From NCBI RefSeq assembly GCF_000010625.1, contig NC_010296.1, positions 330,001 to 362,000 of the forward strand: 32,000 nucleotides of DNA, in the 5' to 3' direction. The DNA is from Microcystis aeruginosa NIES-843 (GTDB lineage: Bacteria; Cyanobacteriota; Cyanobacteriia; Cyanobacteriales; Microcystaceae). Below are positions 49 through 14,494 of this stretch, in pieces; positions within the stretch are counted from its first letter, which is position 1; every line of letters begins with the position of its first letter. A model generated the notes under the pieces. The model saw nothing but the letters and a program-made list of their open reading frames with translations. It did no database searches and had not been told where the DNA came from. A program made the translations under genes and the position numbers.

Positions 49-212
49 TTCCGATGACCCAACCTAGGAAAGGATGCGATCGCTTTTCGTTCTCTAAAAC
101 AGTGATCGCACCAAGATGACAAGCACTGTAGCATAACCCACCGAATATTATAAAATTGGTGGTGCGTTACATTTCATGCTTGGCGAAATCCGGCAAAATA
201 AGCTTTAACCTC

Positions 213-449
213 ATGCCAGAAATTTTCAGACTGGAAGGCTATGTTTTCTTTTTCTATGCCAATGAAGGCAATGAACCCATGCACGTTCACGTTCGACGGG
301 GCGGCGGATATGCTAAATTTTGGCTAGAGCCGCTAGAATTGGATTATGCTAAAGGTCTAAAAACCAAAGAAATTGTTCGGGCTGAAGTTATCATTACAGA
401 AAATATAGAAATAATACGGAGGAAATGGCACGATGTATTTGGTACATGA
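213..449 (+). CDS. DUF4160-family small protein, first gene of a DUF4160/DUF2442 pair
   Basis: The track ORF 156-449 starts at TTG. The internal ATG at 213 gives MPEIFRLEGYVFFFYANEGNEPMHVHVRRGGGYAKFWLEP, the typical DUF4160 N-terminus with the xHxH motif. Confidence 0.7.
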   Translation: MPEIFRLEGYVFFFYANEGNEPMHVHVRRGGGYAKFWLEPLELDYAKGLKTKEIVRAEVIITENIEIIRRKWHDVFGT

Positions 450-681
450 AAGCATAGTAAAAGCTCAAAAAGTTTGGGTTGAAGATAAATGGATTTGTAT
501 TCGTTTAGAAGACGATAGAGAAATTCGTTTTCCTGCTTATAAAAATAAACGCTTATCAAAAGCAACCTTTGAACAATTAGCAGAGGTTGAGTTAATTTGT
601 GATGGCACGGGATTACATTGGGAAACCTTAGATGAGGATTTGTCCATCATTGGCATTTTAGAAGGAAGATTGGGTGCTTAA
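433..681 (+). CDS. DUF2442-family small protein, partner of DUF4160
   Basis: It overlaps the upstream gene by 17 nt. The pattern ...IRLEDDREIRFP...FEQLAEVELICDGTGLHWETLDEDLSI resembles the DUF2442 consensus (DGR..fP, G.g.hW..lDeDis). Confidence 0.7.
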   Translation: MYLVHESIVKAQKVWVEDKWICIRLEDDREIRFPAYKNKRLSKATFEQLAEVELICDGTGLHWETLDEDLSIIGILEGRLGA

Positions 682-699
682 ATGTTAAATGCTTAAAAA

Positions 700-845
700 A
701 AATCGGCTCTACCGAACCTAGTAATCATAGCAATTACCGTCGGTTGGGTTGACGTAAAAAAACCCAACAAAAAGATTCAGACGGACTTAGGTGTTGGGTG
801 TTGGGTTTCGCTTTCCCTGAGAATTGAGAGATTTTCTTTAACCTA
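700..845. repeat. Composite junction repeat module, copy lacking the TPR-tail part and interrupted at its 3' end by a MITE
   Basis: gtaatcatagcaattaccgtcggttgggttgac + hairpin unit + ctttccctgagaattgagagattttctttaac matches 4185-4305 and 5180-5400. The remainder of the module (tttattcgctcaacccaagctacg) resumes at 2379-2402. Confidence 0.8.
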
Positions 846-910
846 AGTAGCTGGTTATAATTAAATTAAAAATGGATTTTAGGTTCGATCCCCCCTGCCC
901 CCCTTGATAA

Positions 911-2334
911 GGGTAGGGCTGTTTCATTTAAATTAATTACAGCTGATTTTGAGTCAATAAATTTGACCGAAGATTCTCAAGTTTATCTTTTTCTAATCAA
1001 AAGAGTTAGTCACAATAACTAATCTTTAATCTTCTGCCAATATTTATTATGAATAAATTGATAAAGCCTGTTCCCAAGCCACTAAAAGCCTATCTCTCTT
1101 GAAATTGTCTGAGAGTACATCCTGTTAATTTAGCTAATTTTTCTGCTTCTTACGTCGATAAAACTATCAATTTTTCCCAACGTTCAGCTAACCACCTCTG
1201 TCCCTCTGTTATTGAGAGAAAACCCAAACCTCTGAAAAGATTCAATCCTATAGTTGTGAGAATTGACCAATTGCTGGCCGCTTGAAAATCACTTATCTCG
1301 CTTTTATCTTCCTCAAAAATTACATCTTTTACCCAATGTAACTGATTTTCTATTTTCCAATGTCCTCGAATAATTTTAGCAAATACTTGAGCGGATTCGG
1401 TTAGGCTACTGATATAGTAAGCTGTTTCTTCATAGGTTTTATCCCCGCGACTACCCTTTCTTTCTACTTTAATAACTCTTCGCAGATTTTCAAACCCTTG
1501 TCTTTCATTTTTTCTCACTTTAAAAACTTCTATTTTTCTTGATATTTTTCGTCCATGACTATTATCTTGTTCAAGAAAGCAACTTTCTGGCTTTGAGGAA
1601 TTACTCAGGTCTTGTATTCGCTTATAAAGATTTTTCTGATTTCCTTTAACGGTGATAACATAATCATTTTTAGTCTTGGCTATTAAGCTGATTGTTTTTT
1701 TCTGACAGTGTAAAGCATCGCCAGTAAAAACTTTATTTTGGAGAGAGCAATCCTCAATTATAGCTTGCCCTTCGTCGATTTCAGACCCTTTTTTGTTTTC
1801 CATTCTTTTTAAGTGTAATACTAATCCACTTTCTTGACTAAACAATGAGACAAACATGATAAAATTTTGTTGTTCATTATTAGGATTCTTTAGGGTGTTT
1901 TTGAGACTTTTTCCATCCATACCTAGCCAATTTATATCATCTCTTTGTCCATATTCTTCTAATGCCCATTCATTAAACATTTTTAACAAACTCTGCCAGT
2001 CAACTCCCATCATTACCCTTCTAATTGTTGAATAGGATGGGACTCTTTCTGGAATTATGTTAAATTCTTTACTGAGCCTGTGCCGATTATTTTTAGCAAA
2101 CTCTCCTAGTTCTCTATAACCTGAGTATCCTAGCATTGTTCCCAGTATTATTACTACTAATACTATCCATAAAGGGTGTCTTTTTCCTTTATCTTTCCTA
2201 AAGTCCTTGACTTGTTTCAGTTTTTCTATTAAGCTCAACATATATTTTAAAGGTTGGCGGTCACTCCTCATTTTACCTGATAGTGATCGCTTTTACTTTT
2301 GATATTCTGATGGGAGAATGAAACAGCCCTACCC
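911..2334 (-). mobile_element. ISAs1-family insertion sequence
   Basis: Terminal inverted repeats are gggtagggctgtttcatt (911-928) and aatgaaacagccctaccc (2317-2334). A single transposase ORF lies inside. The flanking direct duplication is ttgataa (7 bp), or cccttgataaggg (13 bp) if the IR is 3 bp shorter. The two boundaries cannot be distinguished from the sequence. Confidence 0.75.
1150..2271 (-). CDS. ISAs1-family DDE transposase
   Basis: 373 aa. Motifs are LGMDGKSL, FTGDALHCQKK and RGHWKIENQLHWVKDVIFEEDKS, plus the N-terminal DFR...RHPL 'DDE_Tnp_1-associated' pattern. Confidence 0.9.
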   Translation of the reverse strand: MRSDRQPLKYMLSLIEKLKQVKDFRKDKGKRHPLWIVLVVIILGTMLGYSGYRELGEFAKNNRHRLSKEFNIIPERVPSYSTIRRVMMGVDWQSLLKMFNEWALEEYGQRDDINWLGMDGKSLKNTLKNPNNEQQNFIMFVSLFSQESGLVLHLKRMENKKGSEIDEGQAIIEDCSLQNKVFTGDALHCQKKTISLIAKTKNDYVITVKGNQKNLYKRIQDLSNSSKPESCFLEQDNSHGRKISRKIEVFKVRKNERQGFENLRRVIKVERKGSRGDKTYEETAYYISSLTESAQVFAKIIRGHWKIENQLHWVKDVIFEEDKSEISDFQAASNWSILTTIGLNLFRGLGFLSITEGQRWLAERWEKLIVLST

Positions 2335-2416
2335 TTGATAAGGGGGGTGTCTGACAACTTTTAACGCCTACCTACTTATTTATTCGCTCAACCCAAGCTA
2401 CGAAATTAGACTTTGA

Positions 2417-2758
2417 TTAAGTATTGACTGATTCTAGATGCCTTAAAATCTGTTTTCTTAAATCATCCAAATAATTTTCTACCACCTCCCAAACTGTATT
2501 AAGGTCAATTCCCCCTAAATAATCATGTACTAAAATATTCCTAAAACCAGAAATATTACGCCAGTCAACATTGGGAATATTTGCCTTTAATTCCTCCGAA
2601 AGCCTTTGAGTTGATTCTGCCAAAGTTTGTAAGCGTCTAATGATAGCATCGCTGATCATTGAATTAGCAAAAAACTCCTGTTTTCCTCCTTGGGAATAGT
2701 CCTTAATTTTATCAATACAGTCTAAAATATATTCAAGATAAACTCGATCTTCATTCAT
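2417..2758 (-). CDS. hepT: HepT (DUF86/HEPN) toxin of a MntA/HepT module
   Basis: 113 aa with the HEPN R-x4-H motif in FRNILVHDY. Its 4-nt ATGA overlaps the upstream nucleotidyltransferase gene. Confidence 0.85.
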   Translation of the reverse strand: MNEDRVYLEYILDCIDKIKDYSQGGKQEFFANSMISDAIIRRLQTLAESTQRLSEELKANIPNVDWRNISGFRNILVHDYLGGIDLNTVWEVVENYLDDLRKQILRHLESVNT

Positions 2759-3048
2759 AACTTAATTGCCTCCTTTAAGATTCGCTGTTTAATTAGATGA
2801 TGAAGGCTTTTTTCAGTTACTACATCCACTTTACACCCTAAGAGAGCCTCTAAATCAACTAATAATCCACCGGGAAACCAAGGGGATGTTTTAGCTAAAT
2901 CATAATCAATTAAAAAATCAATATCACTATTTTCGGTTTCCTCACCTCTAGCAACGGAACCAAATACACGCACATTAAAAGCACCATGTTTGGTGGCAAT
3001 TTTTAGGATATCCTCTCGTTTGTCTTGTATGAGTTGTTTTAAGGTCAT
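2755..3048 (-). CDS. mntA: MntA-type minimal nucleotidyltransferase antitoxin
   Basis: The motif FGSVARGEETENSDIDFLID is the GS-x-RG...DxD polymerase-beta-type NTase motif. The track ORF extends to 3084. The ATG at 3048 (MTLKQLIQ...) is the more conventional start. Confidence 0.85.
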   Translation of the reverse strand: MTLKQLIQDKREDILKIATKHGAFNVRVFGSVARGEETENSDIDFLIDYDLAKTSPWFPGGLLVDLEALLGCKVDVVTEKSLHHLIKQRILKEAIKL

Positions 3049-3142
3049 AAAATAACATCCATCCCGAAGGTTTTTAATGAACAATTAACAGACTAGACTA
3101 GAAAAAACTAAATACTGATAACTCACCCCCCCACTTATTGCC

Positions 3143-3283
3143 CTAATTGCTGCAAAAATTGCATCACCTTTTCATCAGTTGCCATATTATTCTGTTGGTG
3201 GAATAATATAGCTGCTTGTTATAGATCAATTTTTGCTTTTTCGGTTTGTTTTAATTTGGCATATAAAAGACCACGACTACGGA
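3143..3283 (-). repeat. ~141-bp repeat, copy A: degenerate 3' end of a TPR-protein gene
   Basis: Near-identical to 4039-4179 and 5034-5174. The minus-strand translation reads RSRGLLYAKLKQTEKAKIDL*QAAIIFRQQNNMATDEKVMQFLQQLG, with an in-frame TAA. This is the typical C-terminal tail of cyanobacterial TPR proteins. Confidence 0.75.
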
Positions 3284-3323
3284 CTTTATGAACGGTGGCT
3301 AAATAAGTAATCATTGATTTCTC
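3284..3323 (-). pseudogene. Orphan hicB 5' fragment (RBS plus the first 10 codons) fused to repeat copy A
   Basis: ctttatgaacggtggctaaataagtaatcattgatttctc is identical to 4783-4822, the start of the intact hicB (MITYLATVHK). Confidence 0.8.
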
Positions 3324-3326
3324 ATT

Positions 3327-3671
3327 TCAGGTTCGCATTAGATTATATTCTTCGCGGATTGATGAAGTTAGAGATTCCAATAAGATTAATTTTTCCTCAA
3401 TTGACAGGTTTTTTCCTTGTTTAATTAATGTTTGTAAAGGCATTTTTTTTAAATCAAATTCAGGCACAAGTAGAGCCAATTCTTGTGTTTGTTGATTTTG
3501 TAAGTCAGTAATTAATTCTTGTAAAAATAAAGAATCATTACTTAAGTCCGAAATTTCATCTTCATAGTTTTCGAGAGCTTCTATTTGTTGAATACGGTCA
3601 CTATAATTTTTGAGAAGGGATTCGAGAGCTTCGATAATAAATTGGATGTCTTTAAATGATAGAGTTTTCAT
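3327..3671 (-). CDS. Hypothetical acidic helical protein, candidate immunity/antitoxin for the upstream Tse2-like gene
   Basis: 114 aa, rich in D/E/L/Q with a predicted all-helical character. It starts 8 nt after the upstream stop (TGAGGTAAACTATG). No family was recognised. Confidence 0.4.
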   Translation of the reverse strand: MKTLSFKDIQFIIEALESLLKNYSDRIQQIEALENYEDEISDLSNDSLFLQELITDLQNQQTQELALLVPEFDLKKMPLQTLIKQGKNLSIEEKLILLESLTSSIREEYNLMRT

Positions 3672-3679
3672 AGTTTACC

Positions 3680-4027
3680 TCAACTTACACGATAAAAAAA
3701 TTCACCAATTACCCTTAAAGCGTGTTGATAGGTTTCTATTGACATGGGAAATAAGGGTTTCCATAACCAGTGATTACCTCGATCATTAATTAATTCTAGC
3801 TCACTGGGAATAGAAATTCCCCGATCTAGTTTCCACCAGTTGTTTCCTATTCCCTGAACGGAAAAGGTCGAAATTCCCCCCGGTGTTTGTCCATCGACAA
3901 GGGTTTCTTTTACCCATATTTGCCCATTATTTTCATAGATAGCAATATCTTTGTTAGGACGAACATAATCCATTCTGGGAGATGTAGCATTACCTCTACG
4001 GTATAAATCAACGGGTGTTTTTATCAT
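3680..4027 (-). CDS. Tse2-like putative ADP-ribosyltransferase toxin
   Basis: 115 aa. DLYR(10), GGIST(53-54)F and IPSE(76)LE(78)LIND...HWLWKPLFPM line up with my recollection of P. aeruginosa Tse2 (LYR, GGTSVF, IPPDLKV...HYTIMPAKPM). Together they form an R / S-T / E-x-E pattern. Confidence 0.5.
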   Translation of the reverse strand: MIKTPVDLYRRGNATSPRMDYVRPNKDIAIYENNGQIWVKETLVDGQTPGGISTFSVQGIGNNWWKLDRGISIPSELELINDRGNHWLWKPLFPMSIETYQHALRVIGEFFYRVS

Positions 4028-4038
4028 TTGTCACCTCC

Positions 4039-4505
4039 CTAATTCGCGTAAAAGTTGCATCACCTTTTCATAAGTTGCCATATTATCCTGTTGGCGGAAT
4101 ATTATAGCCGCTTGTTATAGATCAATTTTGGCTTTTTTGGTTTGTTTTAATTTGGCATATAAAAGACCACGACTACGGATTATAGTAATCATAGCAATTA
4201 TCGTCGATTGGGTTGACCCAAGGAAACCCAACAAAAAGATTCAGACGGATTTAGATTTTGGGTGTTGGGTTTCGCTTTTCCTGAGAATTGAGAGGTTTTC
4301 TTTAACATATTTATTCGCTCAACCCAACCTACGAAACTACGAAACTCTAAAGTAGGTTGGGTTGAGGCACGAAACCCAACAATACACCCAAGTAAACCCA
4401 ACAAAAAGATTCAGACGGATTTAGGTGTTGGCTGTTGGGTTTCGCTTTTCCTGAGAATTGAGAGGTTTTCTTTAACATATTTATTCGCTCAAACCAAGCT
4501 AGGGA
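4039..4505. repeat. Composite junction repeat module, copy B: TPR-tail remnant plus two hairpin units plus tails
   Basis: 4039-4179 is the TPR-tail remnant. Hairpin units lie at 4227-4274 and 4397-4444. A second hairpin type, gtaggttgggttgaggcacgaaacccaac, is at about 4343-4379. The tail cttttcctgagaattgagaggttttctttaacatatttattcgctcaa occurs twice. Confidence 0.8.
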
Positions 4506-4511
4506 CTGCAC

Positions 4512-4808
4512 CTAGTTTTTTACACACAATTCCTGATGGTTTAAAATAGCTTCTGATACCTCAATGAGCAGAAAAGCGATCGCATCTTGATGATCCGCGT
4601 CGGTTAAAATGGTTTCGAGGGTGCTAGGGGTGGGAATTTCGTCCCCATCTGCCAACATAAAGGAAATATGACCTTTTAAGGCTTCAGTTGCCATTTTTTT
4701 CGCTTCTTCGATGGTTTCTCCTGCACTAATACAACCCGGAAAGTCATAAAATTGTACCCCATAATCACTATGGTTATCTTTATGAACGGTGGCTAAATAA
4801 GTAATCAT
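4512..4808 (-). CDS. hicB: HicB-family antitoxin
   Basis: 98 aa. The sequence MITYLATVHKDNHSDYGVQFYDFPGCISAGETIEEAKKMATEAL is a typical HicB N-terminal domain. It lies downstream of hicA. Confidence 0.85.
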   Translation of the reverse strand: MITYLATVHKDNHSDYGVQFYDFPGCISAGETIEEAKKMATEALKGHISFMLADGDEIPTPSTLETILTDADHQDAIAFLLIEVSEAILNHQELCVKN

Positions 4809-4819
4809 TGATTTCTCCT

Positions 4820-5008
4820 TTATCGTAATTTAATACCGGCTTGTTTTTCGATACTGATTAGGGTTTTAAGGGGAATATCCTTTTTAGGGTGAGGAACAGT
4901 CACTTTCCCTTTTTTATGGGGATGTTTAAAATGATGATGACTTCCTGTTGTACCTACTTGATACCATCCCTCATCCTTCAGTTTTTTGATAATTTCTCGA
5001 CTTTCCAT
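4820..5008 (-). CDS. hicA: HicA-family mRNA interferase toxin
   Basis: 62 aa. The sequence IIKKLKDEGWYQVGTTGSHHHFKHPHKKGKVTVPHPKKDIPLKTL is the HicA signature. Confidence 0.9.
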   Translation of the reverse strand: MESREIIKKLKDEGWYQVGTTGSHHHFKHPHKKGKVTVPHPKKDIPLKTLISIEKQAGIKLR

Positions 5009-5033
5009 AATTGATGATTTCTATTTCACCCCC

Positions 5034-5427
5034 CTAATTGCTGCAAAAATTGCATCACTTGTTCATAAGTTGCCATATTATTCTGTTGGCGGAATATTAT
5101 GGCTGCTTGTTGTAGATCAATTTTTACTTTTTCGGATTGTCCTAATATGGCATATAAAACACCACGACTACGGATTATAGTAATCATAGCAATTATCGTC
5201 GATTGGGTTGACCCAAGGAAACCCAACAAAAAGATTCAGACGGATTTAGGTGTTGGTTGTTGGGTTTCTACCGTAGGTTGGGTTGAGGCACGAAACCCAA
5301 CAATACACCCAAGGAAACCCAACAAAAAGATTCAGACAGATTTAGGTTTTGGGTGTTGGGTTTCGCTTTTCCTGAGAATTGAGAGGTTTTCTTTAACATA
5401 TTTATTCGCTCAAACCAACCTACGGAA
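5034..5427. repeat. Composite junction repeat module, copy C
   Basis: 5034-5174 is the TPR-tail remnant, the least decayed copy (track ORF 5026-5229). Hairpin units lie at 5222-5268 and 5318-5365, with the gtaggttgggttgaggcacgaaacccaac hairpin between them. The tail runs up to the stop codon of the 1379-aa gene. Confidence 0.8.
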
Positions 5428-8400
5428 CTACTGATTAACATAATTTTTTAGTTCAGGATGTGCTAATAATTTTTGAACATCAGCAAAAATTTTGTTTGTC
5501 CGTAAAATCTTTTTGAGGAAATCAATATTGGCAAGTTGAGAATTAATACTTAAAGCACTTTCAGCGAGTTTTAATGCTTTATCTTTTTCGCCTTGATGAT
5601 AAAAAGCAACGGCTAAAGCTAATTGAATTTCGGCTGATTGATTGTTAATTATTAGTGCTTTTTCCCATTGTTTAATTGCTTCACTTATTGACCCTTGTTC
5701 ATACTTAACTAAGCCGATGCCCATCATAGCAAACCAAGCATTTTTGTTAATTTTAATAGCTTTGTTGTAATCAGAGAGGGCTAATTCGTATTTTTGTTGG
5801 AGATAGTAAAGATTCCCCCGATTGTTGTAAGCCTCAACTAAATTAGGATTAATTTCAATAGCTTTGTTGAAGTCAGCTAAAGCTAATTCGTCTTTTTGTT
5901 GGTAATAGTAAATACCCCCCCGACCTAAGTAAGCCTCAGCTAAATTAGGATTAATGTCAAGAGCTTTGTTGTAGTCAGCTAAAGCTAATTCGTATTTTTG
6001 TTGGAGATAGTAAAGATTCCCCCGATTGCTGTAAGCCATAGCTAACTTAGAATCAAGTTCAATAGCTTTGTTGAAGTCAGCTAATGCTAATTCGTATTTT
6101 TGTTGGTCATTGTAAATATTCCCCCGATTGCTGTAAGCCATAGCTAACTTAGAATCAAGTTCAATAGCTTTGTTCCAGTCAGCTAAAGCTAATTCGTATT
6201 TTTGTTGGTTATAGTAAATACTCCCCCGATTGTTGTAAGCATTAGCATAATTAGGATTAATGTCAATGGCTTTGTTGTAGTCAGCTAAAGCTAATTCGTA
6301 TTTTTTTTGGTAATAGTAAAGCTCCCCCCGACCAAAGTAAGCCATAGCATAATTAGGATTAATTTCAAGAGCTTTGTTGAAGTCAGCTAAAGCTAATTCG
6401 TATTTTTGTTGGAGAAGGTAAATACCCCCCCGACCTAAGTAAGCCTCAGCTAAATTAGGATTAATTTCAAGAGCTTTGCTGTAGTCAGCTAAAGCTAATT
6501 CGTATTTTTGTTGGAGACTGTAAATACTCCCCCGACCTAAGTAAGCCTCAGCTAAATTAGGATTAATTTCAAGAGCTTTGCTGTAGTCAGCTAAAGCTAA
6601 TTCGTATTTTTGTTGGAGACTGTAAATACCCCCCCGACCTAAGTAAGCCAGAGCCAAATTACGATTAAGTTCAATAGCTTTGTTCCAGTCAGCTAAAGCT
6701 AGTTCGTATTTTTGTTGGAGAAGGTAAAGAAGCCCCCGATTGTTGTAAGCCACAGCATAATTAGGATTAATGTCAATGGCTTTGCTGTAGTCAGAGAGGG
6801 CTAAATCGTATTTCTGCAAGTCTTTGTAAAGATTCCCCCGATTGTTGTACGTCTCAGCATAATTAGGATTAATGTCAATAGCTTTGCTGTAGTCAGAGAG
6901 GGCTAAATCGTATTTTTTTTGGTTAAAGTAAAGAAGCCCCCGATTGTTGTAAGCCACAGCATAATTAGGATTAATGTCAATGGCTTTGGTGTAGTCAGAG
7001 AGGGCTAAAATGTCAATGGCTTTGGTGTAGTCAGAGAGGGCTAAATCGTATTTCTGCAAGTCTTTGTAAAGATTCCCCCGATTGTTGTACGTCTCAGCAT
7101 AATTAGGATTAATGTCAATGGCTTTGCTGTAGTCAGAGAGGGCTAAATCGTATTTCTGCAAGTCAGAGTAAAGATTCCCCCGATTGTAGTAAGCCTTAGC
7201 ATCATTAGGATTAATGTCAATGGCTTTGCTGTAGTCAGAGAGGGCTAAATCGTATTTCTGCAAGTTATAGTAAAGATTCCCCCGATTGTAGTAAGCCACA
7301 GCATCATTAGGATTAATGTCAATAGCTTTGCTGTAGTCAGCTAAAGCTAATTCGTATTTTTTTTGGTCAGAGTAAAGATTCCCCCGATTGTTGTAAGCGT
7401 TAGCATAATTAGGATTAATTTTAATGGCTTTGTTCCAGTCAGAGAGGGCTAAATCGTATTTCTGCAAGTTATAGTAAAGATTCCCCCGATTGCCATACCA
7501 AGCAGCACGGGGAGCGAGATCAATTGCCTGAGTAATCGCCGCTAATCCCTCATCATAGCGTTTTAATTGACTTAATACTACATATTTCTCGTTATAGTGA
7601 TTGGGGTTATTGGGAAACAGAGAAATCGCCTGATTAATCACCGTTAAGGCTTGCTCATAATTTTCTAAATAGCGATAAACAACACTTTGCTTTTGTAAAA
7701 TACTACTGTGAAAGTTCTTTAAATCTTCCCGTTTAGGTAAGGTATTAATCGCTTGTTGCAAAGCTTCTATAGCTGTTTGATATTTACCTAAATAACCTAA
7801 CGCCAATCCCTTCCCATACCAGGCTAAATAGACATTCTTGGGGTCATTTTGCTTAATCGCTTCATCAAAGGCTTTAATTGCTTCCTCATACCTTTCTAAC
7901 CGCCATAATTGTCCTCCCCTTTGTATCCAAATATCCGCCTTCGCATTGGTATTAGGGACAATAACACCAGTAATCGCTTGAATAATTTCTTGTTGTTGTT
8001 GCGGACTAACTTGGGGTTGAGCAGTGGTTAATAATTGCGGTTTTACCTTCAATCTTTCTTGCAATCCGATAAAAGTGCTAATGGGAATCCCTAAACTAAA
8101 CCCTAGCTGAATTTTCCCTACCCCTGCTGTTTCCGAACTTCCATGAATCCCTATTACTCTCCCCTGAGAGTCTAAGACTGCACCGCCACTCATGCCCCCA
8201 AATGTGATGCTGGTATAAACTAATTCATAGCCTCCGGTTAAAGAAGCAACACTTTGTAATGTTCCTCCTTGTTCATTGCTTAAGTCACTTTGGCGGGTTT
8301 GTAGTAATCCCCCTTCTTTATCGTGAATTGTACCGCCACTAAACAACCATTTCGAGGGATTGTCGCCAATTTTGGGGAAGCCTGCGGCAAAAACAAAATC

Positions 8401-9567
8401 ACCGGTATTTGGGTTATAATTCGCTATTTCCGCAACGGGATAATTGTCTCGGCTTTCAAACTGAAAAACTGCTAAATCTACCCCTTCCTGCCGGATGATG
8501 GTGCTTTTCTCGATTTTTCGAGTTTTGCCGTCCCTGGTGACGACGGTGTAGGTGAAATTGACACAGGTTTTCTCCTCGGCGATTTTTTCGCAGAGGACGT
8601 GAGCGGCGGTTAAAACTGTGTAAATATTCCCTTTTTTAGCGATAATTACGCCACTTCCATTGGCAATTACGCCACTTCCATTGGCTTTACTGCTACTATC
8701 AATCCGCACGGTGAAACCCTTGGCTTTTGTTTCTAATTGGGCGATATAGACAGTAGGGGCGGTGGTTTCTATATCGGGGTTCACCTGCGGTAGGGGTAGG
8801 TTATAGGCGCTGAGGATTTCAGGACGGATGTAGGTTAATAGGGTATGAAGGGAAATGCCCCAGTTAACCGCTCTCATCTGTTGGATTTCTTCGTCTGTGG
8901 GTTTTGTGCCGTCTTCGTAGGTGTAGTTAGAGAGAATCGGATGGGCCGATCGCCCGTTAATGCCGATTAACTCCCCATCGACAAAAATGCCGCCGCCACT
9001 CATTCCCTGCACGATATCGCCACTATAACCGACGCTGTAGCCATCCCGGAGGGGTCGATCGCTCACCTGTTCGAGGGTTCCCTTTGTCGTCCGATACTGT
9101 CCCGTTTCGGCAACATATCCCGCGGCCACCACTTCTAAACCGATCCTGTTTTGATTGATGGTAAACTTCGCGATGGTGGCGATCGAATAGTCCCGGGTAT
9201 CGCTAAACTCCAGCAGAGCGAGATCTTGATTCTCCGATAGGGAATTGGGGACAATGCGGGCCGCACGGCTGTGGCCGTCGTAAGTTTGTACCTGTAGGGT
9301 TTTCGTGTTGCGGGTAACGTGGGCGTTGGTTAGGACAAGGTAATTATCGCCTTTTTTAGCGATAATCGTCCCCGATCCCCGATTTGTCTCGCTAGTAATC
9401 CGAACGGTGACTCGTTGTAGGATTTGCTCCTCGGTAAGCTCCCGATCGCCCTGTGCCGTCAGAATGGGATGATTAGAAATATTTCCGGCAGCCGGGGTGA
9501 TAAGGGTTAACCCGGGTTGAGGCAGTAGGGAGAAAAGAAGGATGAGGGCGATCGAAGGTTTGATCAT
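5428..9567 (-). CDS. Exported protein with two trypsin-like (S1/Trypsin_2-type) serine protease domains and a long TPR array
   Basis: N-terminal signal-like segment MIKPSIALILLFSLLPQPGL. Domain 1 carries TNAH(83)V, D(115)LALL and GMS(190)GGG. Domain 2 carries TAAH(323)V, D(364)LAVF and GGMS(460)GG. Roughly two dozen 34-aa TPR units run from about residue 545 to 1345. Confidence 0.9.
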   Translation of the reverse strand: MIKPSIALILLFSLLPQPGLTLITPAAGNISNHPILTAQGDRELTEEQILQRVTVRITSETNRGSGTIIAKKGDNYLVLTNAHVTRNTKTLQVQTYDGHSRAARIVPNSLSENQDLALLEFSDTRDYSIATIAKFTINQNRIGLEVVAAGYVAETGQYRTTKGTLEQVSDRPLRDGYSVGYSGDIVQGMSGGGIFVDGELIGINGRSAHPILSNYTYEDGTKPTDEEIQQMRAVNWGISLHTLLTYIRPEILSAYNLPLPQVNPDIETTAPTVYIAQLETKAKGFTVRIDSSSKANGSGVIANGSGVIIAKKGNIYTVLTAAHVLCEKIAEEKTCVNFTYTVVTRDGKTRKIEKSTIIRQEGVDLAVFQFESRDNYPVAEIANYNPNTGDFVFAAGFPKIGDNPSKWLFSGGTIHDKEGGLLQTRQSDLSNEQGGTLQSVASLTGGYELVYTSITFGGMSGGAVLDSQGRVIGIHGSSETAGVGKIQLGFSLGIPISTFIGLQERLKVKPQLLTTAQPQVSPQQQQEIIQAITGVIVPNTNAKADIWIQRGGQLWRLERYEEAIKAFDEAIKQNDPKNVYLAWYGKGLALGYLGKYQTAIEALQQAINTLPKREDLKNFHSSILQKQSVVYRYLENYEQALTVINQAISLFPNNPNHYNEKYVVLSQLKRYDEGLAAITQAIDLAPRAAWYGNRGNLYYNLQKYDLALSDWNKAIKINPNYANAYNNRGNLYSDQKKYELALADYSKAIDINPNDAVAYYNRGNLYYNLQKYDLALSDYSKAIDINPNDAKAYYNRGNLYSDLQKYDLALSDYSKAIDINPNYAETYNNRGNLYKDLQKYDLALSDYTKAIDILALSDYTKAIDINPNYAVAYNNRGLLYFNQKKYDLALSDYSKAIDINPNYAETYNNRGNLYKDLQKYDLALSDYSKAIDINPNYAVAYNNRGLLYLLQQKYELALADWNKAIELNRNLALAYLGRGGIYSLQQKYELALADYSKALEINPNLAEAYLGRGSIYSLQQKYELALADYSKALEINPNLAEAYLGRGGIYLLQQKYELALADFNKALEINPNYAMAYFGRGELYYYQKKYELALADYNKAIDINPNYANAYNNRGSIYYNQQKYELALADWNKAIELDSKLAMAYSNRGNIYNDQQKYELALADFNKAIELDSKLAMAYSNRGNLYYLQQKYELALADYNKALDINPNLAEAYLGRGGIYYYQQKDELALADFNKAIEINPNLVEAYNNRGNLYYLQQKYELALSDYNKAIKINKNAWFAMMGIGLVKYEQGSISEAIKQWEKALIINNQSAEIQLALAVAFYHQGEKDKALKLAESALSINSQLANIDFLKKILRTNKIFADVQKLLAHPELKNYVNQ
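5745..7500 (-). repeat. 102-bp-periodic, near-identical TPR-coding repeat array inside the CDS
   Basis: Two unit subfamilies are seen: NRGNLYxxLQKYDLALSDYSKAIDINPNYAxAY and GRGxIYxLQQKYELALADYxKALEINPNLAEAYL. Many units share runs of more than 40 identical nucleotides. Confidence 0.9.
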
Positions 9568-9595
9568 GGCTTTTACCTAGCTATTTTAAATAGTA

Positions 9596-9626
9596 GAAAA
9601 CGGGTTTCTCCGAGAAACCCGTTTTC
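9596..9626 (-). terminator. Palindromic hairpin element between the CHAT-CHASE2 gene and the protease-TPR gene: possible attenuator/terminator or RNA-processing site
   Basis: On the minus strand it reads gaaaacgggtttc-tcgga-gaaacccgttttc (13-bp stem, 5-nt loop) followed by tactattt, a weak U tract. The same element occurs downstream of ftsH at 16722-16752. Confidence 0.5.
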
Positions 9627-9632
9627 TGTGCG

Positions 9633-12101
9633 TTACTCAACGGATTTAGTATAAGAACGAAGAAAAAAGAAGATACCGGAGGTGGTGAGAAGTGCGATCG
9701 CTGGGGGAATAATCGGAACCCAGAGACCGAAATAACTAAAGAGAAGCCAACCGATACCAGTAAGGGAAATCACAGTGATCGCCACTGTCAAAAGTACCGT
9801 TTTTACCCGAAGAAAACGCCACGTTAACAATCCCCCCACCAGGGACCAACCCAGCACCCAGAAAGCCTCCTGTAGGGGATTCCAGAAAGCGATCGAGGTA
9901 CGTTTTCCTTCCATTGTATCGAGAATTTGACTGACTGCGTGCGCGTGCAAATAAACCCCCGGAATTGCTTCCGATGGGTTGCGACTAAAGGGGGTTAAAA
10001 AATCATCGATCCCGGGTTCTGTTACTCCAATCAGGACAATTTTTCCCCGGACCGATTCGGAATTAAAACCCGGATCTAAAACCTGTTGGAGAGATTTTTT
10101 CGGGGCAATTTTTGTGATTGCATCGCTGCCATTATCGGCGATTCGACGGTAAGCGAGCATAACTTGACGACCGGATCGGGTATCGGATTGACTGGTTCTA
10201 TAGGGGCCGCGGTTGGATTGCAGCCAGTCACCGAGATGAGTATCCCCGATATTAATTTCTAGAATTCCCCGCTGCAGTTTATTGCAGTCAAAATCTTGAT
10301 TCTGGGATTCTAGATATCGTTTGGCAATTAGGAGACTAAAACTAGGAGCATAATCTTTAAAATTACAGGACATTGAGTCAACTGTGGCCAAAGAATCCGG
10401 GGGAAGACAGGGAGATGTGCGATCGAGTTTTGCCTGATATAAAAAACGACGAATTCGGGGAACTCCGGCAATGGTTTCGTCTGGGACTATGTTACTAAAA
10501 CCACTCTGATTTTTTGGCAGTTCCGGGGGTGGGGGAAATCCGTCCGGTTGCGGGTAATTATTAAACTTACAAATCGAGATAAAATTAGGAGTATTTTGTA
10601 ATTGTTTGGCTAGGGGTGGATAATCTTGACTGGCAGCGATGGGACGGAGGATATCTAAGGCGATAATTTGCGGTTCGTAGGGCAGTAATTTATTTAAAAG
10701 CTGCGATAATGCTTCTCCTGCGAGGGAACGTTTTCGATCGCTTCCGGGTATTGTTGGTCTTTTCATACCCATGCGATCTTGATATTCCCAATCTTGGCGA
10801 TCAATGGTAATAATTAATAATCTTTCGTCGGGTTTATCTTTGGGTTTTAGTTGCATCAGGCGATCATAAATATTTAATTCTAAGGGTTCTAAAATTCCTG
10901 TTTCTCTTATTGCCAAGACTGTCATCGTTACGGCTAAACCTAAACCGAAAGTTAGAGCAAATCGTCGCCAATTTTGTTGTTTTTGAGGGGAGTTACTGAA
11001 ACTATGCCAAGTGGGGGGTTCTTCGGTGGGATTGGGGCAAACTACGGGCAGCCAACTGGCACAGGGATAGTCTTTTTCCCAGTCATCGTGCAGATTTTTT
11101 TGGGCTTCATGTACGGCGCTATAGAGAGATTTATTATTGGTAAAAGCGGTTAAAAAGTATTGCAGAAATTTGGGAGAAACGGGATCGGGTAATTTCTCGC
11201 GCATAAAGATTAGATGGGGTAATGCCATCCCTTTTTCCCGTGATAGTTGTTGTGCTAAACCAATACCATCACAGGAGTTAAATATCGCTAACTTTAACCC
11301 GTTTTTAGTGGCTTCTCCCAGGGAAAAGCTAAAATCAGCTATCTTTAATTTATGAGTTTCTGTTAGTTGAATTTCGCAATCTTGACCATCTTCTGTACTG
11401 GCACTATGACCGCTAAAAAAGAGGATATTCCAAGTTTCTTGACGCAATAACTGATTTAATTTTTGCGGGTGAGGGGCTTTTTCCCAGATAATTTCGGCTC
11501 CTGCTTTTCCCGCAATATCGTCTAAAGTTTTGCGATCTTCTTCGAGAAATCTTAAGTCGGTGGCATAGCCTAAAATGGCTAAAATCCGAATTTTTTCATG
11601 ATTTTTTAATTGTCTGGTTAAGGTATCGTATTCTGAGACAATAATGGCTATATCTGCGCCAGTATTTTGGAGGATTTCCCATTTTTCCCAGGGGAATCTT
11701 TGCAGCCAAATATTATCGGTTTGTAACCAGATACGAAAGTTATTGCCAGAGCGCAGAATTGCGGTTTTGATCGGTTCAAATTCTGGGCTATTATTCAACC
11801 ATTTGTTTAAGTTATCCTCAAATAATTTGGCTTTTTCTTGGCAGTTTTTAAAAACTAAACTCTGCTGAGAACTATTGGTAATTTGTTGGGGATTGCTATC
11901 TTTTAAGACTTTAAAAAATCCCTCTAATTCACTATAGTGACGTTGCCATTGACGGTAAAGAGTTAATAACTCTAAATTAGCTGGTAGCCTTGCTTTGATC
12001 ACAGTTTGGGGACGAGAATTAAGATCGGGACGAATTTCTAATTTTACTTTAAATCCCCGATCAAATGTGCCATCTAGTTCGAGAGTTAAGAGTTTAATCA
12101 T
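9633..12101 (-). CDS. Membrane protein with an N-terminal cytoplasmic caspase/CHAT-like domain, one TM, an extracytoplasmic CHASE2 domain and three C-terminal TMs
   Basis: FFSGH(232)S and IFNSC(277)DG form a His/Cys dyad in an alternating beta-alpha context. TM1 is FALTFGLGLAVTMTVLAI (381-398). A ~350-aa segment then matches the CHASE2 position and length. Three hydrophobic helices follow, and the protein ends at residue 822. Confidence 0.7.
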   Translation of the reverse strand: MIKLLTLELDGTFDRGFKVKLEIRPDLNSRPQTVIKARLPANLELLTLYRQWQRHYSELEGFFKVLKDSNPQQITNSSQQSLVFKNCQEKAKLFEDNLNKWLNNSPEFEPIKTAILRSGNNFRIWLQTDNIWLQRFPWEKWEILQNTGADIAIIVSEYDTLTRQLKNHEKIRILAILGYATDLRFLEEDRKTLDDIAGKAGAEIIWEKAPHPQKLNQLLRQETWNILFFSGHSASTEDGQDCEIQLTETHKLKIADFSFSLGEATKNGLKLAIFNSCDGIGLAQQLSREKGMALPHLIFMREKLPDPVSPKFLQYFLTAFTNNKSLYSAVHEAQKNLHDDWEKDYPCASWLPVVCPNPTEEPPTWHSFSNSPQKQQNWRRFALTFGLGLAVTMTVLAIRETGILEPLELNIYDRLMQLKPKDKPDERLLIITIDRQDWEYQDRMGMKRPTIPGSDRKRSLAGEALSQLLNKLLPYEPQIIALDILRPIAASQDYPPLAKQLQNTPNFISICKFNNYPQPDGFPPPPELPKNQSGFSNIVPDETIAGVPRIRRFLYQAKLDRTSPCLPPDSLATVDSMSCNFKDYAPSFSLLIAKRYLESQNQDFDCNKLQRGILEINIGDTHLGDWLQSNRGPYRTSQSDTRSGRQVMLAYRRIADNGSDAITKIAPKKSLQQVLDPGFNSESVRGKIVLIGVTEPGIDDFLTPFSRNPSEAIPGVYLHAHAVSQILDTMEGKRTSIAFWNPLQEAFWVLGWSLVGGLLTWRFLRVKTVLLTVAITVISLTGIGWLLFSYFGLWVPIIPPAIALLTTSGIFFFLRSYTKSVE

Positions 12102-12116
12102 TAAGTTTTTCCTCGC

Positions 12117-13244
12117 TTATACTTGTAAATATTCGGTGACTCTTGCCGATTCTAAAGCCACTTCAATGAAGAATTTATCCCCCAATTCAGCATCAAATCG
12201 ATAACGAATAAATTCATCGTTATCTGTGGCAATTACTTCTCGAAAAACCTGACCATTTTCGGTGAGAATAGTTAATTTTAAATGGGGGGGTAAAGTGCTT
12301 GTTTCTCCGGTGGGGTAAACAGTCGCTTGCAGGCTAAATACTTCTTCAATTTTAGCGATAGTAATCATCAAAGCGAGGGAATTTCCCAGTAATTCTATTC
12401 CTAAATCTTTGATGCGTTTAATTTCTGTATTTTTGAAAGCTGGAACCAGTGACAGTGAGCTAAAATCGAGGATACTTTGCCAATCAATGGGGAAATTATC
12501 GGCAAACCAATTGGTTAACTTGACGGGGGATTTTTGCCGACGGGTAATTAAAATTTTTCTCCAGTTACTATTGACGATAACTGCTGCCCATTCCTGAAAA
12601 GTAACGGCTTTTCTGGGAAAGATTAACTGAGGATTAGCTAAGATGTCTAGTAAGGTTGTCAATCTATCTAAAGATAGTTTTTCTTCCATCTTTTCCGGTT
12701 CAATCTTAACTGGTTGTAATTGACACTCTCCCCATAAATTCAAAGAATCTGATCCTGATTGCAGTTGATTTCTCGGTAGAGAGTAGTTAAGATTACGCTT
12801 AATATATTGTCCTTTTTCCTTAATATCTTTATGGGTAGTATAACCCCAAATTCTCAGATAACTTTCGGCAGTGTTTACCTGTACCGCTAGATAATAATCA
12901 CCAATTAATTGAGGAATATCTACCCATTCTTGAGGAATTTCGATCGCTTCTAGATCCAGAGTTTCGCTGGCAATAACTATTACTGACTTTTCGCCTAATT
13001 TAACGGTAAAACCATTAACTCCTAGTTGCCAGAAATCCTCTTGATTTTCTACTAAGCTAACCCCAGGCATCCCTGACTGTAGATAGTTAAAAATAACTTG
13101 TTGACAAAGATAATTAACATAAAATCTCTGACGAATACTGGCATCAGTAAAACTGGCACTTTTTGCCCAACTGATCTCTTGAATATCTGCGGGTATTTCT
13201 AGCCAAATGCTATCAGGAGTTAGTTCTAACCAATCATTAACCAT
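12117..13244 (-). CDS. DUF1822-like protein, function unknown
   Basis: The track ORF reaches 13295, but the ATG at 13244 (MVNDWLELTPD...) is preceded by GGAGGA at a 6-nt spacing and sits 2 nt after the upstream stop. The N-terminal pattern ...RQRFYVNYLCQQVIFNYLQ and ...DYYLAVQVNTAESYLRIWGYTTH resemble what I recall of the cyanobacterial DUF1822 family. Confidence 0.55.
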   Translation of the reverse strand: MVNDWLELTPDSIWLEIPADIQEISWAKSASFTDASIRQRFYVNYLCQQVIFNYLQSGMPGVSLVENQEDFWQLGVNGFTVKLGEKSVIVIASETLDLEAIEIPQEWVDIPQLIGDYYLAVQVNTAESYLRIWGYTTHKDIKEKGQYIKRNLNYSLPRNQLQSGSDSLNLWGECQLQPVKIEPEKMEEKLSLDRLTTLLDILANPQLIFPRKAVTFQEWAAVIVNSNWRKILITRRQKSPVKLTNWFADNFPIDWQSILDFSSLSLVPAFKNTEIKRIKDLGIELLGNSLALMITIAKIEEVFSLQATVYPTGETSTLPPHLKLTILTENGQVFREVIATDNDEFIRYRFDAELGDKFFIEVALESARVTEYLQV

Positions 13245-13246
13245 AA

Positions 13247-14494
13247 TTAATCCTCCTGAGTTGTTGCGCTGGTTTGATAGTAGTATGTTAGCCATGGTTC
13301 TATTGCCTTACTAATAACTTCTCTATCGTGAGACTGGGAAGGAATATGCAGGTTTTCGCTGGCCCAGGGTAAAAACTTTTTAGCGAGGTGACGATAAACT
13401 TTATCCAGTTCCCTAGAAACCTGATATTGTTTGATAACCACCGTGGTAATTTCTGTAATCTTAGCGGCAATTGCCACTTGTCCCAACCCGGAACCATAAG
13501 TCATCTCTAGAATTAACTGAATTTGCGGATGCAGTTTTGCCTGTTGCGGCTGCTGACAAATCTGTTCAATTTCTGCCCCTAACCAAGCTAGAATTTTTTG
13601 GTGGTTTTGTTGCGAATCGAGAAAATTTTCCGCCGCTTCTAATTGCTGCCAAGGGTTATTATGGAGAGTATCTTCGATCATTTCTTCCCTCGTGCTACTT
13701 TCCCCATCCCCGAAAGGTTGCTGTAGAGAAATTGTTTTTCCTTGGGGAAATAAATAATCAGAAATAGCTTGTCCCGCATCCTTTAACCATCGGGTAATTG
13801 TCGCAGAACTGATTTTGATGGTAGAGTGGCTATCCGAGTTATAAGCAGCGGCGATTTTTTGCCAGATTTCTGGACTAGGTTCCTGAATTTTACCATCGGT
13901 TTTGATTTTTGCCTGGGCATAAATTTCTTTATAGTAATCCCAAGCTAAAAGGTAATTTTCGAGAGTTTCTCCCACTAATCCCCTCGCCAGGAGAGCTTGG
14001 CTGAGACGCGCTCCGGTAGAATTAAGTAGTAGGCTCCAAGTATTATGGCCGAATGCTTGACTAATCTGACGGATGCGATCGATTAAGCGATATTTAATCC
14101 TCTGAGTGGCAAAATTATCGAAGCGAGTAGAGAATAAAGGCTTAAAGTCAGCTAAGATAGCCTCAAAACCAAGAATTCCTTCGTTAAAGTAGTCTTCGAT
14201 CTGATAATCCAGTTTAGCTTGATATTTTTGATAGATTTCGGCAGCAGCCCAGTAGCAAGGTTCCTGTAAATAAGCGTATAAATGCCCACGAAAAAGATGA
14301 TTTTTGGAACCGTGATTCTGATACTGTTGGTGAAAGAATAGGGACCAATAATCCTCGGACTCGACATTAGGATCGATTGGGCCATAGCTTTCCATGTTAC
14401 GACGCAAACGCCGATCGCAATTCCATTCTGTCCTATTTTGTCGCAAAACTAAAAAGCAACAAAACTTCTCCAGCAAAGTCTCTCGTTTTTTCAT
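13247..14494 (-). CDS. Divergent sigma-70-family-like protein
   Basis: 415 aa. The region-2-like segment is DYFNEGILGFEAILADFKPLFSTRFDNFATQRIKYRLIDRIRQ (residues ~100-143). The region-4-like HTH segment is LILEMTYGSGLGQVAIAAKITEITTVVIKQYQVSRELDKVYRHLAKKF (~327-374). Confidence 0.6.
   Translation of the reverse strand: MKKRETLLEKFCCFLVLRQNRTEWNCDRRLRRNMESYGPIDPNVESEDYWSLFFHQQYQNHGSKNHLFRGHLYAYLQEPCYWAAAEIYQKYQAKLDYQIEDYFNEGILGFEAILADFKPLFSTRFDNFATQRIKYRLIDRIRQISQAFGHNTWSLLLNSTGARLSQALLARGLVGETLENYLLAWDYYKEIYAQAKIKTDGKIQEPSPEIWQKIAAAYNSDSHSTIKISSATITRWLKDAGQAISDYLFPQGKTISLQQPFGDGESSTREEMIEDTLHNNPWQQLEAAENFLDSQQNHQKILAWLGAEIEQICQQPQQAKLHPQIQLILEMTYGSGLGQVAIAAKITEITTVVIKQYQVSRELDKVYRHLAKKFLPWASENLHIPSQSHDREVISKAIEPWLTYYYQTSATTQED

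Follow-up and report, generated by a model that had tools for sequence, protein, structure and literature searches.

Tse2 of Pseudomonas aeruginosa was among the first type VI secretion system (T6SS) effectors to be found (2010); the literature surveyed names no target for it, and reviews disagree on whether it is an ADP-ribosyltransferase (ART). Toxin domains shuttle between secreted toxins and pairs that resemble toxin–antitoxin (TA) systems, and this article describes such a pair, formed by two small genes of the cyanobacterium Microcystis aeruginosa NIES-843 that encode a Tse2-like toxin and an acidic partner protein. Both lie on the minus strand of the analysed stretch of DNA, a 32-kb window (contig NC_010296.1, 330,001 to 362,000), whose positions are used as coordinates throughout. 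In P. aeruginosa, Tse2 is neutralized by its immunity protein, Tsi2, through the acidic residues E38 and D45, which are experimentally essential (PMC3325213), and Tsi2 occludes the active site of the toxin (PMC6099711). Two reviews and a research paper describe Tse2 as an ADP-ribosyltransferase that depends on NAD (PMC6099711, PMC10281587), whereas the wording of a third review is weaker, its toxicity being NAD-dependent and one that 'may involve' ADP-ribosyltransferase activity (PMC4899435). The placement of the Tse2 family in the ART clan is Pfam's classification (PMC7955679).

The reading preferred here, with a little better than even confidence, is that the Microcystis pair is an autonomous, horizontally mobile two-gene toxin–immunity cassette, TA-like and with the toxin gene first. 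The toxin belongs to an already known, automatically annotated family, and its Tse2 assignment is in itself not new. What is new is a conserved immunity family that is not Tsi2, the stand-alone, fused and plasmid architectures in which the pair occurs, and the delimitation of the site that is truly conserved in the toxin; a literature search found no paper describing the immunity family, the architectures or the conserved site. The pair has the following features, all on the minus strand.

4027..3680: toxin gene, minimal Tse2-family domain (PF18648), 115 amino acids (aa), ATG start, TGA stop at 3682-3680; from open reading frame (ORF) analysis, Pfam, AlphaFold2 and Foldseek
4000-3998, 3871-3869, 3784-3782 and 3772-3770: toxin codons for R10, S53, D82 and H86, respectively
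3802-3800 and 3796-3794: toxin codons for the variable residues E76 and E78
Family-conserved toxin residues: R10, R23, D27, G50-G51-I-S53-T54, W65, N81-D82, H86, P91, M95
4028..4039: toxin ribosome-binding region, GGGAGGTGACAA then ATG, with GGAGG at 4038-4034; it comes from the end of repeat D1
3672..3682: toxin stop and 8-nt spacer (3672-3679), read from the sequence
3681-3677: GAGG(T) Shine–Dalgarno-like motif overlapping the toxin stop codon, read from the sequence
3671..3327: partner gene, 114 aa, ATG start
3474..3671: partner N-terminal core, aa 1-66, acidic helical hairpin (helices 6-32 and 37-66)
3327..3473: partner C-terminal extension, aa 67-114 and stop, two helices, lineage-variable

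The ORF coordinates, the lengths of the two products and the 8-nt gap are exactly those of an earlier note made on this DNA, and the ORF positions bear out its remark that the order, toxin and then partner, is that of tse2-tsi2. The GAGG motif over the toxin stop is consistent with co-translation of toxin and partner.

The toxin domain and its conserved site

The PF18648 profile (ADPRTs_Tse2) matches the toxin at 31.3 bits against a gathering cut-off of 26.6 (E 3.8e-7), spanning toxin residues 21-105 and profile positions 38-126 of 137. A precomputed PF18648 match exists in nearly all of its homologues, certain of which carry the NCBI or UniRef name 'Tse2 family ADP-ribosyltransferase toxin'. 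The AlphaFold2 model of the toxin, built on 32 homologues, has a predicted local distance difference test score (pLDDT) of 95.6 and a predicted template modelling (TM) score, pTM, of 0.87, and a Foldseek search of the PDB with this model ranks Tse2 first (5AKO_C, probability 1.00, E 5e-3, TM 0.56/0.43). The next PDB match has an E value of 0.88, leaving 5AKO_C as the sole meaningful one; the only other ART-fold neighbour, Tpt1 (6EDE), appears at rank 34 and at noise level (E 3.2, TM 0.38). Moreover, hhalign joins the toxin family profile to Tse2 (E 4.5e-5, probability 69%), pairing PGGISTF with TGGTSVF, IPSELELIND with IPPDLKVKQD and HWLWKPLFPM with HYTIMPAKPM, and MAFFT sets L8-Y9-R10 of the toxin opposite L12-Y13-R14 of Tse2; the Tse2 and Tsi2 sequences used in the comparisons were checked against the PDB chains. 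Since Pfam, Foldseek and hhalign agree, the Tse2 assignment of the toxin is correct. The earlier note had recognized a Tse2-like protein by eye and had proposed a profile search against the Tse2 family and a comparison of an AlphaFold model with the Tse2–Tsi2 crystal structure. Both lead to the family it named, the first with a PF18648 score above the gathering cut-off, to which hhalign adds, and the second with 5AKO_C at the top, and its by-eye alignments are reproduced by hhalign and MAFFT.

Other searches with the toxin returned little. The PDB gave no matches to a profile made from alignment A1, because Tse2 is too distant for hmmsearch with a profile as narrow as this one, and the sequence matches in the PDB to designed Kelch/TPR repeat proteins (8PJS, 7Q58, 7OBI) were discarded as artefacts that sum weak repeats, each domain having an independent E value >100. 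Against NCBIfam, PADLOC and PHROGs nothing meaningful was obtained for either the toxin or the partner. The best match of the toxin model in BFVD is an uncharacterised protein of 346 aa from Sylvanvirus sp. (A0A3G5ALG6; probability 0.99, E 0.015, TM 0.47), and by the modelled fold a Tse2-like domain may thus be present in a eukaryotic giant virus.

Conservation was followed in two sets, the first of 80 loci from distinct genomes, fetched with the toxin alignment from 124 confirmed matches, and the second of 114 divergent representatives, one per 50%-identity cluster. The titles of the 80 loci all name or indicate cyanobacteria, except for one 'Flavobacterium' contig. In these cyanobacterial loci, D27, S53, T54, N81 and H86 are invariant (80/80), R23 and D82 are found in 79/80 and R10 in 76/80; among the representatives, R10 is kept in 110/114 and S53 in 113/114. 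Conservation of at least 90% across the superfamily, as sampled by the 114 representatives, is reached by L8, R10, G12, R23, G51, S53, W65, D82, H86, P91 and M95, and seven of these residues, R10, G51, S53, D82, H86, P91 and M95, are identical in Tse2, where they correspond to R14, G78, S80, D112, H122, P127 and M131. In the toxin model, R10 lies in strand 8-11 and G51-I-S53-T54 at strand 52-55, and the serine motif, which lacks the third Ser, is a variant of STS. As read from these alignments, the signature of the family is R ... G-x-S-T ... N-D-x3-H, which is non-canonical; for this reason an arginine specificity cannot be deduced from it.

Nevertheless, an arginine-directed enzyme had been proposed in the earlier note, according to which E76-L-E78, together with R10 and S53-T54, makes up the classical R-S-ExE signature. 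The glutamates are physically present in the toxin and are tempting because of their position, as E76-x-E78 stands at the start of strand 77-83 in the model, the canonical place of the ExE motif in the ART fold. The toxin would then be an arginine mono-ADP-ribosyltransferase of the cholera-toxin type in which E78 is catalytic and has been regained with respect to Tse2. Conservation of R10 on the first strand and of S53-T54 on strand 52-55 agrees with this proposal, and so does the acidic residue found at position 78 in 50/80 cyanobacterial homologues. However, the composition of the two positions in the cyanobacterial loci (E41/A17/Q13/D7/R2 at position 76 and E31/R20/D19/K5 at position 78) includes Arg or Lys at position 78 in 25/80 close homologues, and in the 114 representatives position 78 becomes essentially random (R15/K14/V12/Q12) and position 76 is mostly Gly (G38/R11/E10/D10), with Glu at ~10% or less at either position. 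A glutamate with a catalytic role is not expected to give way to Arg or Lys, as E78 does among homologues of which nearly all have retained the partner gene. The residues that are invariant in this segment are N81, D82 and H86, and D82 and H86 are matched by D112 and H122 of Tse2, which has D106-L-K108 opposite E76-L-E78, the D-x-K that the earlier note had given. Furthermore, none of the R-S-E toxins is matched significantly by the structure of the toxin model. The arginine and the serine–threonine pair of the proposed signature are thus retained as conserved elements and its two glutamates are not; the ExE of the window toxin is probably a coincidence, and an enzyme of the cholera-toxin type is highly improbable. 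This example serves as a warning that an ExE in one sequence is no evidence of a catalytic motif.

The chemistry of the toxin may also be of another kind. ART-fold toxins of other TA systems (RES, MbcT) degrade NAD+ with no transfer of ADP-ribose, and the toxin could likewise transfer no ADP-ribose to a macromolecule, acting instead as an NAD+ glycohydrolase or phosphorylase, on nucleic acids or by stoichiometric binding, in which case the ART label would hold at the level of the fold only. The family as a whole, and Tse2 with it, lacks the canonical catalytic Glu, the sole weak ART-fold neighbour of the toxin model is an RNA 2'-phosphotransferase (6EDE), and the ADP-ribosyltransferase chemistry ascribed to the toxin rests on the family name. 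In addition, a possible nucleic-acid-directed activity, with acidic Tsi2 as a mimic of nucleic acid, was discussed by Li et al. (PMC3325213). However, the conserved Arg and G-x-S-T are typical NAD+-binding elements of ARTs (PMC8120803), and reviews citing Robb et al. 2016 call Tse2 toxicity NAD-dependent, and a chemistry of this kind is considered distinctly unlikely.

The partner family and its association with the toxin

The earlier note described the downstream protein as acidic and helical, in agreement with its isoelectric point (pI) of 4.37 and with its AlphaFold2 model, which was obtained from a comparatively shallow alignment (A4) and is all-helical, with four helices and a pLDDT of 80. 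The net charge of the partner is -10.5, the median pI of its family is 4.34 and the pI of Tsi2 is 4.05. The conserved part is made up of the N-terminal ~60 aa, with K7, A15, Y23, D38, N45, D46 and F49 invariant in alignment A2 and the core motif [DE][DE]x[SA]D.xND..FL. In many lineages this core is approximately the whole protein (65-80 aa), and the C-terminal extension is absent from these short forms. The extension is lineage-specific, consists of two helices with the motif LSIxE[KR]LxLxE[SA][IL]TxSIR (LSIxERLxLVEAITxSIR) and has homologues in loci L006-L009, L013-L017, L036, L073, L077 and L080. The pattern of this motif is similar to that of the helix at the N-terminus of PF09720 ('putative addiction module component'), with weak statistics (the window protein scores E 4.6, and 1/25 members reaches E 0.015), and membership in that family was not established. 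The partner family has no match in Pfam, NCBIfam, PADLOC or PHROGs, and source records label its homologues 'hypothetical protein'.

The earlier note saw no sequence similarity between the partner and Tsi2, and none of the searches contradicts it. The Tsi2 family PF21643 does not match the partner at E <= 10, hhalign gives the partner profile a probability of 1.6% against Tsi2 and of 3.7% against the Tsi2 family profile, a profile of the short partner forms only reaches 13% (P 2e-3), and the 50 best Foldseek matches of the partner model do not include Tsi2. The N-terminal helices of the short forms and of Tsi2 run in register from Met1 (P ~2e-3). Homology to Tsi2, tried by Pfam, hhalign profiles, the short-form profile and fold, was never significant and was set aside; the resemblance between the two proteins is treated as a functional analogy, a likeness in kind and not evidence of homology. 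The fold of Tsi2 is a helical hairpin, as is predicted for the partner core, and we infer that the D38...N45-D46 hairpin of this core is the domain that neutralizes the toxin.

The pairing of the two genes is obligate. A partner homologue lies directly downstream of the toxin gene and on the same strand in 79/80 loci, and one Microcystis genome has two copies of the pair in different contexts (L003, L004). An exhaustive HMMER search for the toxin domain retrieved 233 cluster representatives at E <= 1e-3; the 116 near-full-length domain matches among the 150 best representatives include 66 stand-alone proteins (<=140 aa), 28 with N-terminal extensions and 12 with C-terminal extensions. Moreover, the toxin domain is followed by the partner core within a single polypeptide in at least 8 independent clusters at 50% identity (hmmsearch E 2e-13 to 1e-4), and one of these fusions, P0204, was checked on its contig and is an uninterrupted 233-codon gene. 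In the plasmid collection, two Pseudoalteromonas loci were found in which, in the same gene order, a Tse2-like gene is overlapped by a gene for 70-77 aa; the profile of the cyanobacterial partner recognizes both small products (E 9e-6 and 3e-4), which have no match to Tsi2. A plasmid of 3.8 kb carries one of these pairs, its six annotated genes being the pair, a replication initiation gene and three small hypotheticals, a setting that suggests an addiction module.

A broader reading of this distribution can be entertained, for which our confidence is low. It supposes a phylum-spanning family, found in cyanobacteria, gammaproteobacteria and GC-rich lineages in two-gene, fused and plasmid forms, that would combine an ART-like enzyme of ~110 aa, built around R / G-x-S-T / N-D / H, with an unannotated acidic-hairpin immunity domain. 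With the same low confidence, the immunity domain may be an extremely diverged or a convergent counterpart of Tsi2, and fused or C-terminally diversified partners may be sensors of phage or stress.

The toxin domain also occurs in toxins that are evidently delivered, where it stands at the C-terminal end of RHS/YD-repeat proteins and of proteins with DUF4157 (HExxH), the latter domain being a marker of toxins of extracellular contractile injection systems (eCIS; PMC8213781). A Pseudoalteromonas homologue, WP_033023891, is a predicted T6SS effector (PMC11882849). The Tse2-like domain is thus a 'polymorphic toxin' module of the usual type, which in addition travels bare, as an intracellular cassette. 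Among the individual homologues, P0088 and P0090 (129-133 aa) have hydrophobic N-terminal extensions resembling signal peptides, which suggests that they could be exported versions of the small toxin, and P0131 (292 aa) has two tandem Tse2-like domains.

The Microcystis pair might accordingly be viewed as an orphan effector–immunity pair, whose toxin would be loaded into a contractile injection system, or leave by some other export route, with its genes elsewhere in the genome, while the partner protects producer and kin. Tse2 is itself a small stand-alone T6SS substrate, loaded through Hcp1 and followed by its immunity gene (PMC6099711), the order of toxin and then immunity gene is typical of such pairs, and the RHS/YD-repeat, DUF4157 and Pseudoalteromonas relatives point in the same direction. 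However, no T6SS, eCIS, RHS, PAAR or DUF4157 genes were found among the larger ORFs scanned in the 32-kb window, and no secretion-system families are present among the 25 most frequent flanking Pfam families listed for the 80 loci, so that the lack of T6SS context remarked on in the earlier note holds both for the scanned ORFs and for the commonest neighbours elsewhere. The 115-aa toxin is approximately a bare domain without an N-terminal trafficking region, against 158 aa in Tse2, a fused toxin–immunity chain is hard to square with delivery of an active toxin, and the 3.8-kb plasmid carries its pair among six small annotated genes with no export machinery. To our knowledge, cyanobacteria generally lack a T6SS. 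Delivery of the window toxin is thus regarded as improbable, and a cassette acting within its own cell is preferred.

The genomic neighbourhood and the mobility of the cassette

The Tse2-like pair is placed between the HepT-MNT and HicAB TA pairs, with an IS4-type transposase close by, in an island that spans 156-5008 and is followed by a run of larger genes.

156-681: DUF4160 + DUF2442 pair
1150-2271: IS4-type DDE transposase
2417-3084: HepT + MNT
3284-3327: duplicated copy, 44 nt long and 98% identical, of the junction of hicA stop and hicB start at 4778-4821, ending at the last base of the partner stop
4031-4273: repeat D1, 243 nt, directly upstream of the toxin gene
3135-3377 and 5026-5268: other copies of repeat D1, upstream of MNT-HepT and of HicAB, respectively
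4512-5008: HicB + HicA
5428-9567, minus strand: double-trypsin and TPR protein, 1379 aa, with near-identical internal TPR repeats
9633-12101, minus strand: CHAT-CHASE2 protein
12117-13295, minus strand: DUF1822 protein
13247-14494, minus strand: 415-aa ORF with no Pfam match, overlapping the DUF1822 gene by 49 nt

The pair behaves as a mobile cassette. Loci from Microcystis genomes are 96-99% identical to the window DNA over the region. In L004 and in L005 (Gomphosphaeria), the DNA homologous to the window covers no more than ~3321-4086, just the two genes, and the homology ends at ~3321-3343 and ~4052-4086. In L001, the cassette comes directly after the TPR-protease gene, without an intervening hicAB. 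The 123 flanking proteins of the 80 loci match 146 Pfam families, none of which is found in more than 7 proteins, and other TA genes (PIN, DUF433, HicA, MNT, Uma2) are occasional near these loci. The locus L002 (JADBYA010000044.1) is a 2.6-kb contig from a 'Flavobacterium sp.' metagenome-assembled genome, 97-99% identical to the window over hicAB, toxin, partner and MNT, and probably derives from Microcystis through mis-binning; the partner gene of L002 is frameshifted, the tblastn match being split in two frames and the ORF of the first frame having 81 aa.

Both edges of the cassette in the window coincide with repeated DNA. The three copies of repeat D1 share a core of ~150 nt that is 68-91% identical between copies, and D1 is likely to be a cassette junction or a recombination substrate of an array of TA cassettes. 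On the other side, the 44-nt duplicate is a recombination scar at the downstream edge of the cassette, which suggests that the Tse2-like cassette recombined into, or beside, a hicAB-type cassette. On the minus strand, D1 is the 3' end of a TPR-like ORF, whose translation closes with ...DLQQAAIIFRQQNNMATYEQVMQFLQQLGG and a stop, and its last bases provide the ribosome-binding site of the toxin gene. A second repeat, D2, of 160 nt, has three copies (4176-4335, 4346-4505 and 5267-5426), two of which form a tandem in the interval from hicB to the toxin gene; D2 resembles a miniature inverted-repeat transposable element and yields several spurious small ORFs on both strands. The minus-strand run at 5428-14494 resembles conflict or signalling genes.

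This setting and the fused proteins also bring phage defence into consideration, in the form of an abortive-infection module whose partner would be both inhibitor and sensor, so that a phage product, or a shut-off of host translation, would remove or displace the partner and free the toxin to halt the infected cell. As only the biological role would differ, this explanation overlaps with the preferred reading. Direct sensing of phage is a function of fused toxin–antitoxin proteins such as CapRel, and toxin and partner form a single chain in at least 8 clusters; the C-terminal extension of the partner varies by lineage, as is expected of a diversifying recognition module; and the pair is located in a TA island, beside CHAT-CHASE2, trypsin-TPR and DUF1822 genes that look like those of conflict systems. 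Besides, an unusual wealth of defence genes is ascribed to Microcystis (PMC5780444). However, no PADLOC defence model was matched, no homologue was found in phage genomes or PHROGs, and defence genes are not consistently adjacent to the pair in the 80 loci, and a dedicated role in phage defence is therefore held to be unlikely.

Proposed mechanism and comparison with known systems

In the preferred reading, that of a mobile toxin–immunity cassette, the 115-aa toxin is a stripped-down Tse2 domain without a delivery module that, by inference from Tse2, would arrest growth inside the cytoplasm. Its reaction would probably depend on NAD+ and take place in an ART-like cleft formed by R10, G51-x-S53-T54 and the N81-D82...H86 hairpin, with the variable E76 and E78 outside the proposed cleft. 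The partner would be co-translated from the transcript of the toxin, and the coupling of the two genes could keep it in excess; its acidic hairpin (D38...N45-D46) may bind the toxin and block the active-site face, by analogy with the E38/D45 patch of Tsi2, and the natural fusions lend such direct binding indirect support. The cassette could thus persist in the TA island as an addictive or defensive selfish module. The analysis establishes the family, the fold and the conserved residues of the toxin, the obligate pairing, the natural fusions, the cassette-like mobility and the lack of a secretion context; toxicity, neutralization by binding, the use of NAD+ and a cellular target are attributes that the pair would be expected to have.

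Several observations weigh against this reading. For members of this clade, toxicity and neutralization are carried over from Tse2 and Tsi2 by analogy. A sensor-type defence system would account for the toxin–partner fusions no less well than a plain addiction module would. Because relatives of the domain are delivered, as the RHS, DUF4157 and signal-peptide-like forms indicate, a secreted role is conceivable for the small form too. In the Foldseek comparison with the PDB, the toxin model has no convincing similarity to ART structures other than Tse2. Unlike the antitoxins of type II TA systems, the partner has no DNA-binding domain, as no helix-turn-helix (HTH), ribbon-helix-helix, AbrB or other domain was found in it or in 25 members of its family, and autoregulation in the type II style is thus not evident. 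Finally, a scan for promoters and terminators gave counts no higher than in shuffled sequences.

The pair matters in several respects. Outside secretion systems, the Tse2 domain is in wide circulation in the form of a self-contained toxin–immunity module, and the conserved core of the family is R, S-T, N-D and H rather than R-S-ExE, which leads to clear predictions for mutagenesis. For annotation, the partner provides a candidate new immunity or antitoxin family, recognizable by its core motif. As the domain is small and self-contained, the minimal toxin could be a tractable system for the chemistry and the target of Tse2-type toxins. If the fused partners did sense phage or stress, they would define a new defence family. 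In other respects, the pair adds another TA-like cassette to a TA island of Microcystis.

The ART-fold TA systems, which comprise RES–Xre and MbcT–MbcA in addition to ParT–ParS and DarT–DarG, are comparable in general plan. ParT–ParS and DarT–DarG are two-gene modules of chromosomes or plasmids in which a toxin of the ART superfamily, using NAD+, is restrained by an adjacent antitoxin (PMC8120803), and the window pair would be of the same general kind. However, the toxins of these systems belong to other families, none of which was matched by profile or fold search; their antitoxins are HTH proteins or macrodomain hydrolases, whereas the partner is an acidic helical hairpin; and their motifs are R-S-E, H-Y-E-like or R-E-S, against R / S-T / N-D / H in the window toxin. 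With type II TA systems in general the pair has in common two small, co-oriented and adjacent genes, a conserved pairing and a variable context, the difference being the one counted against it above. The fused defence proteins of the CapRel type likewise join toxin and inhibitor in one chain, as the fusions of this family do, whereas toxin and partner have a gene each in the window and the families are unrelated.

The RHS-CT and DUF4157-linked eCIS toxins have the same toxin domain as their C-terminus. The window toxin differs from them in being bare; it has a start codon and a ribosome-binding site to itself, lacks a trafficking module and does not lie beside a full-length polymorphic toxin gene that could have it as a spare cassette.

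The closest described system is Tse2–Tsi2 of P. aeruginosa (PA2702/PA2703, PDB 5AKO, PF18648 + PF21643), with which the pair shares the Pfam family and the fold of the toxin, including the R, G-x-S, D, H, P and M residues. In both systems the gene of a toxin that acts in the cytoplasm, as is presumed by analogy for the window protein, precedes that of a small, very acidic, helical immunity protein (pI 4.4 and 4.05). The invariant acidic residues of the partner lie at ~38-46 and the Tse2-binding residues of Tsi2 are E38 and D45 (PMC3325213), and the short partner forms are similar to Tsi2 in size, pI and an 'MNL.P' start. Unlike Tse2, the toxin lacks the 25-50 insertion and the C-terminal helix, and unlike an ortholog of Tsi2, the partner shows no detectable homology to it. 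Thus, whereas Tse2–Tsi2 is a T6SS effector–immunity pair, the pair in the window stands outside any T6SS context, is widespread in cyanobacteria as a mobile cassette and has counterparts in which toxin and partner are fused.

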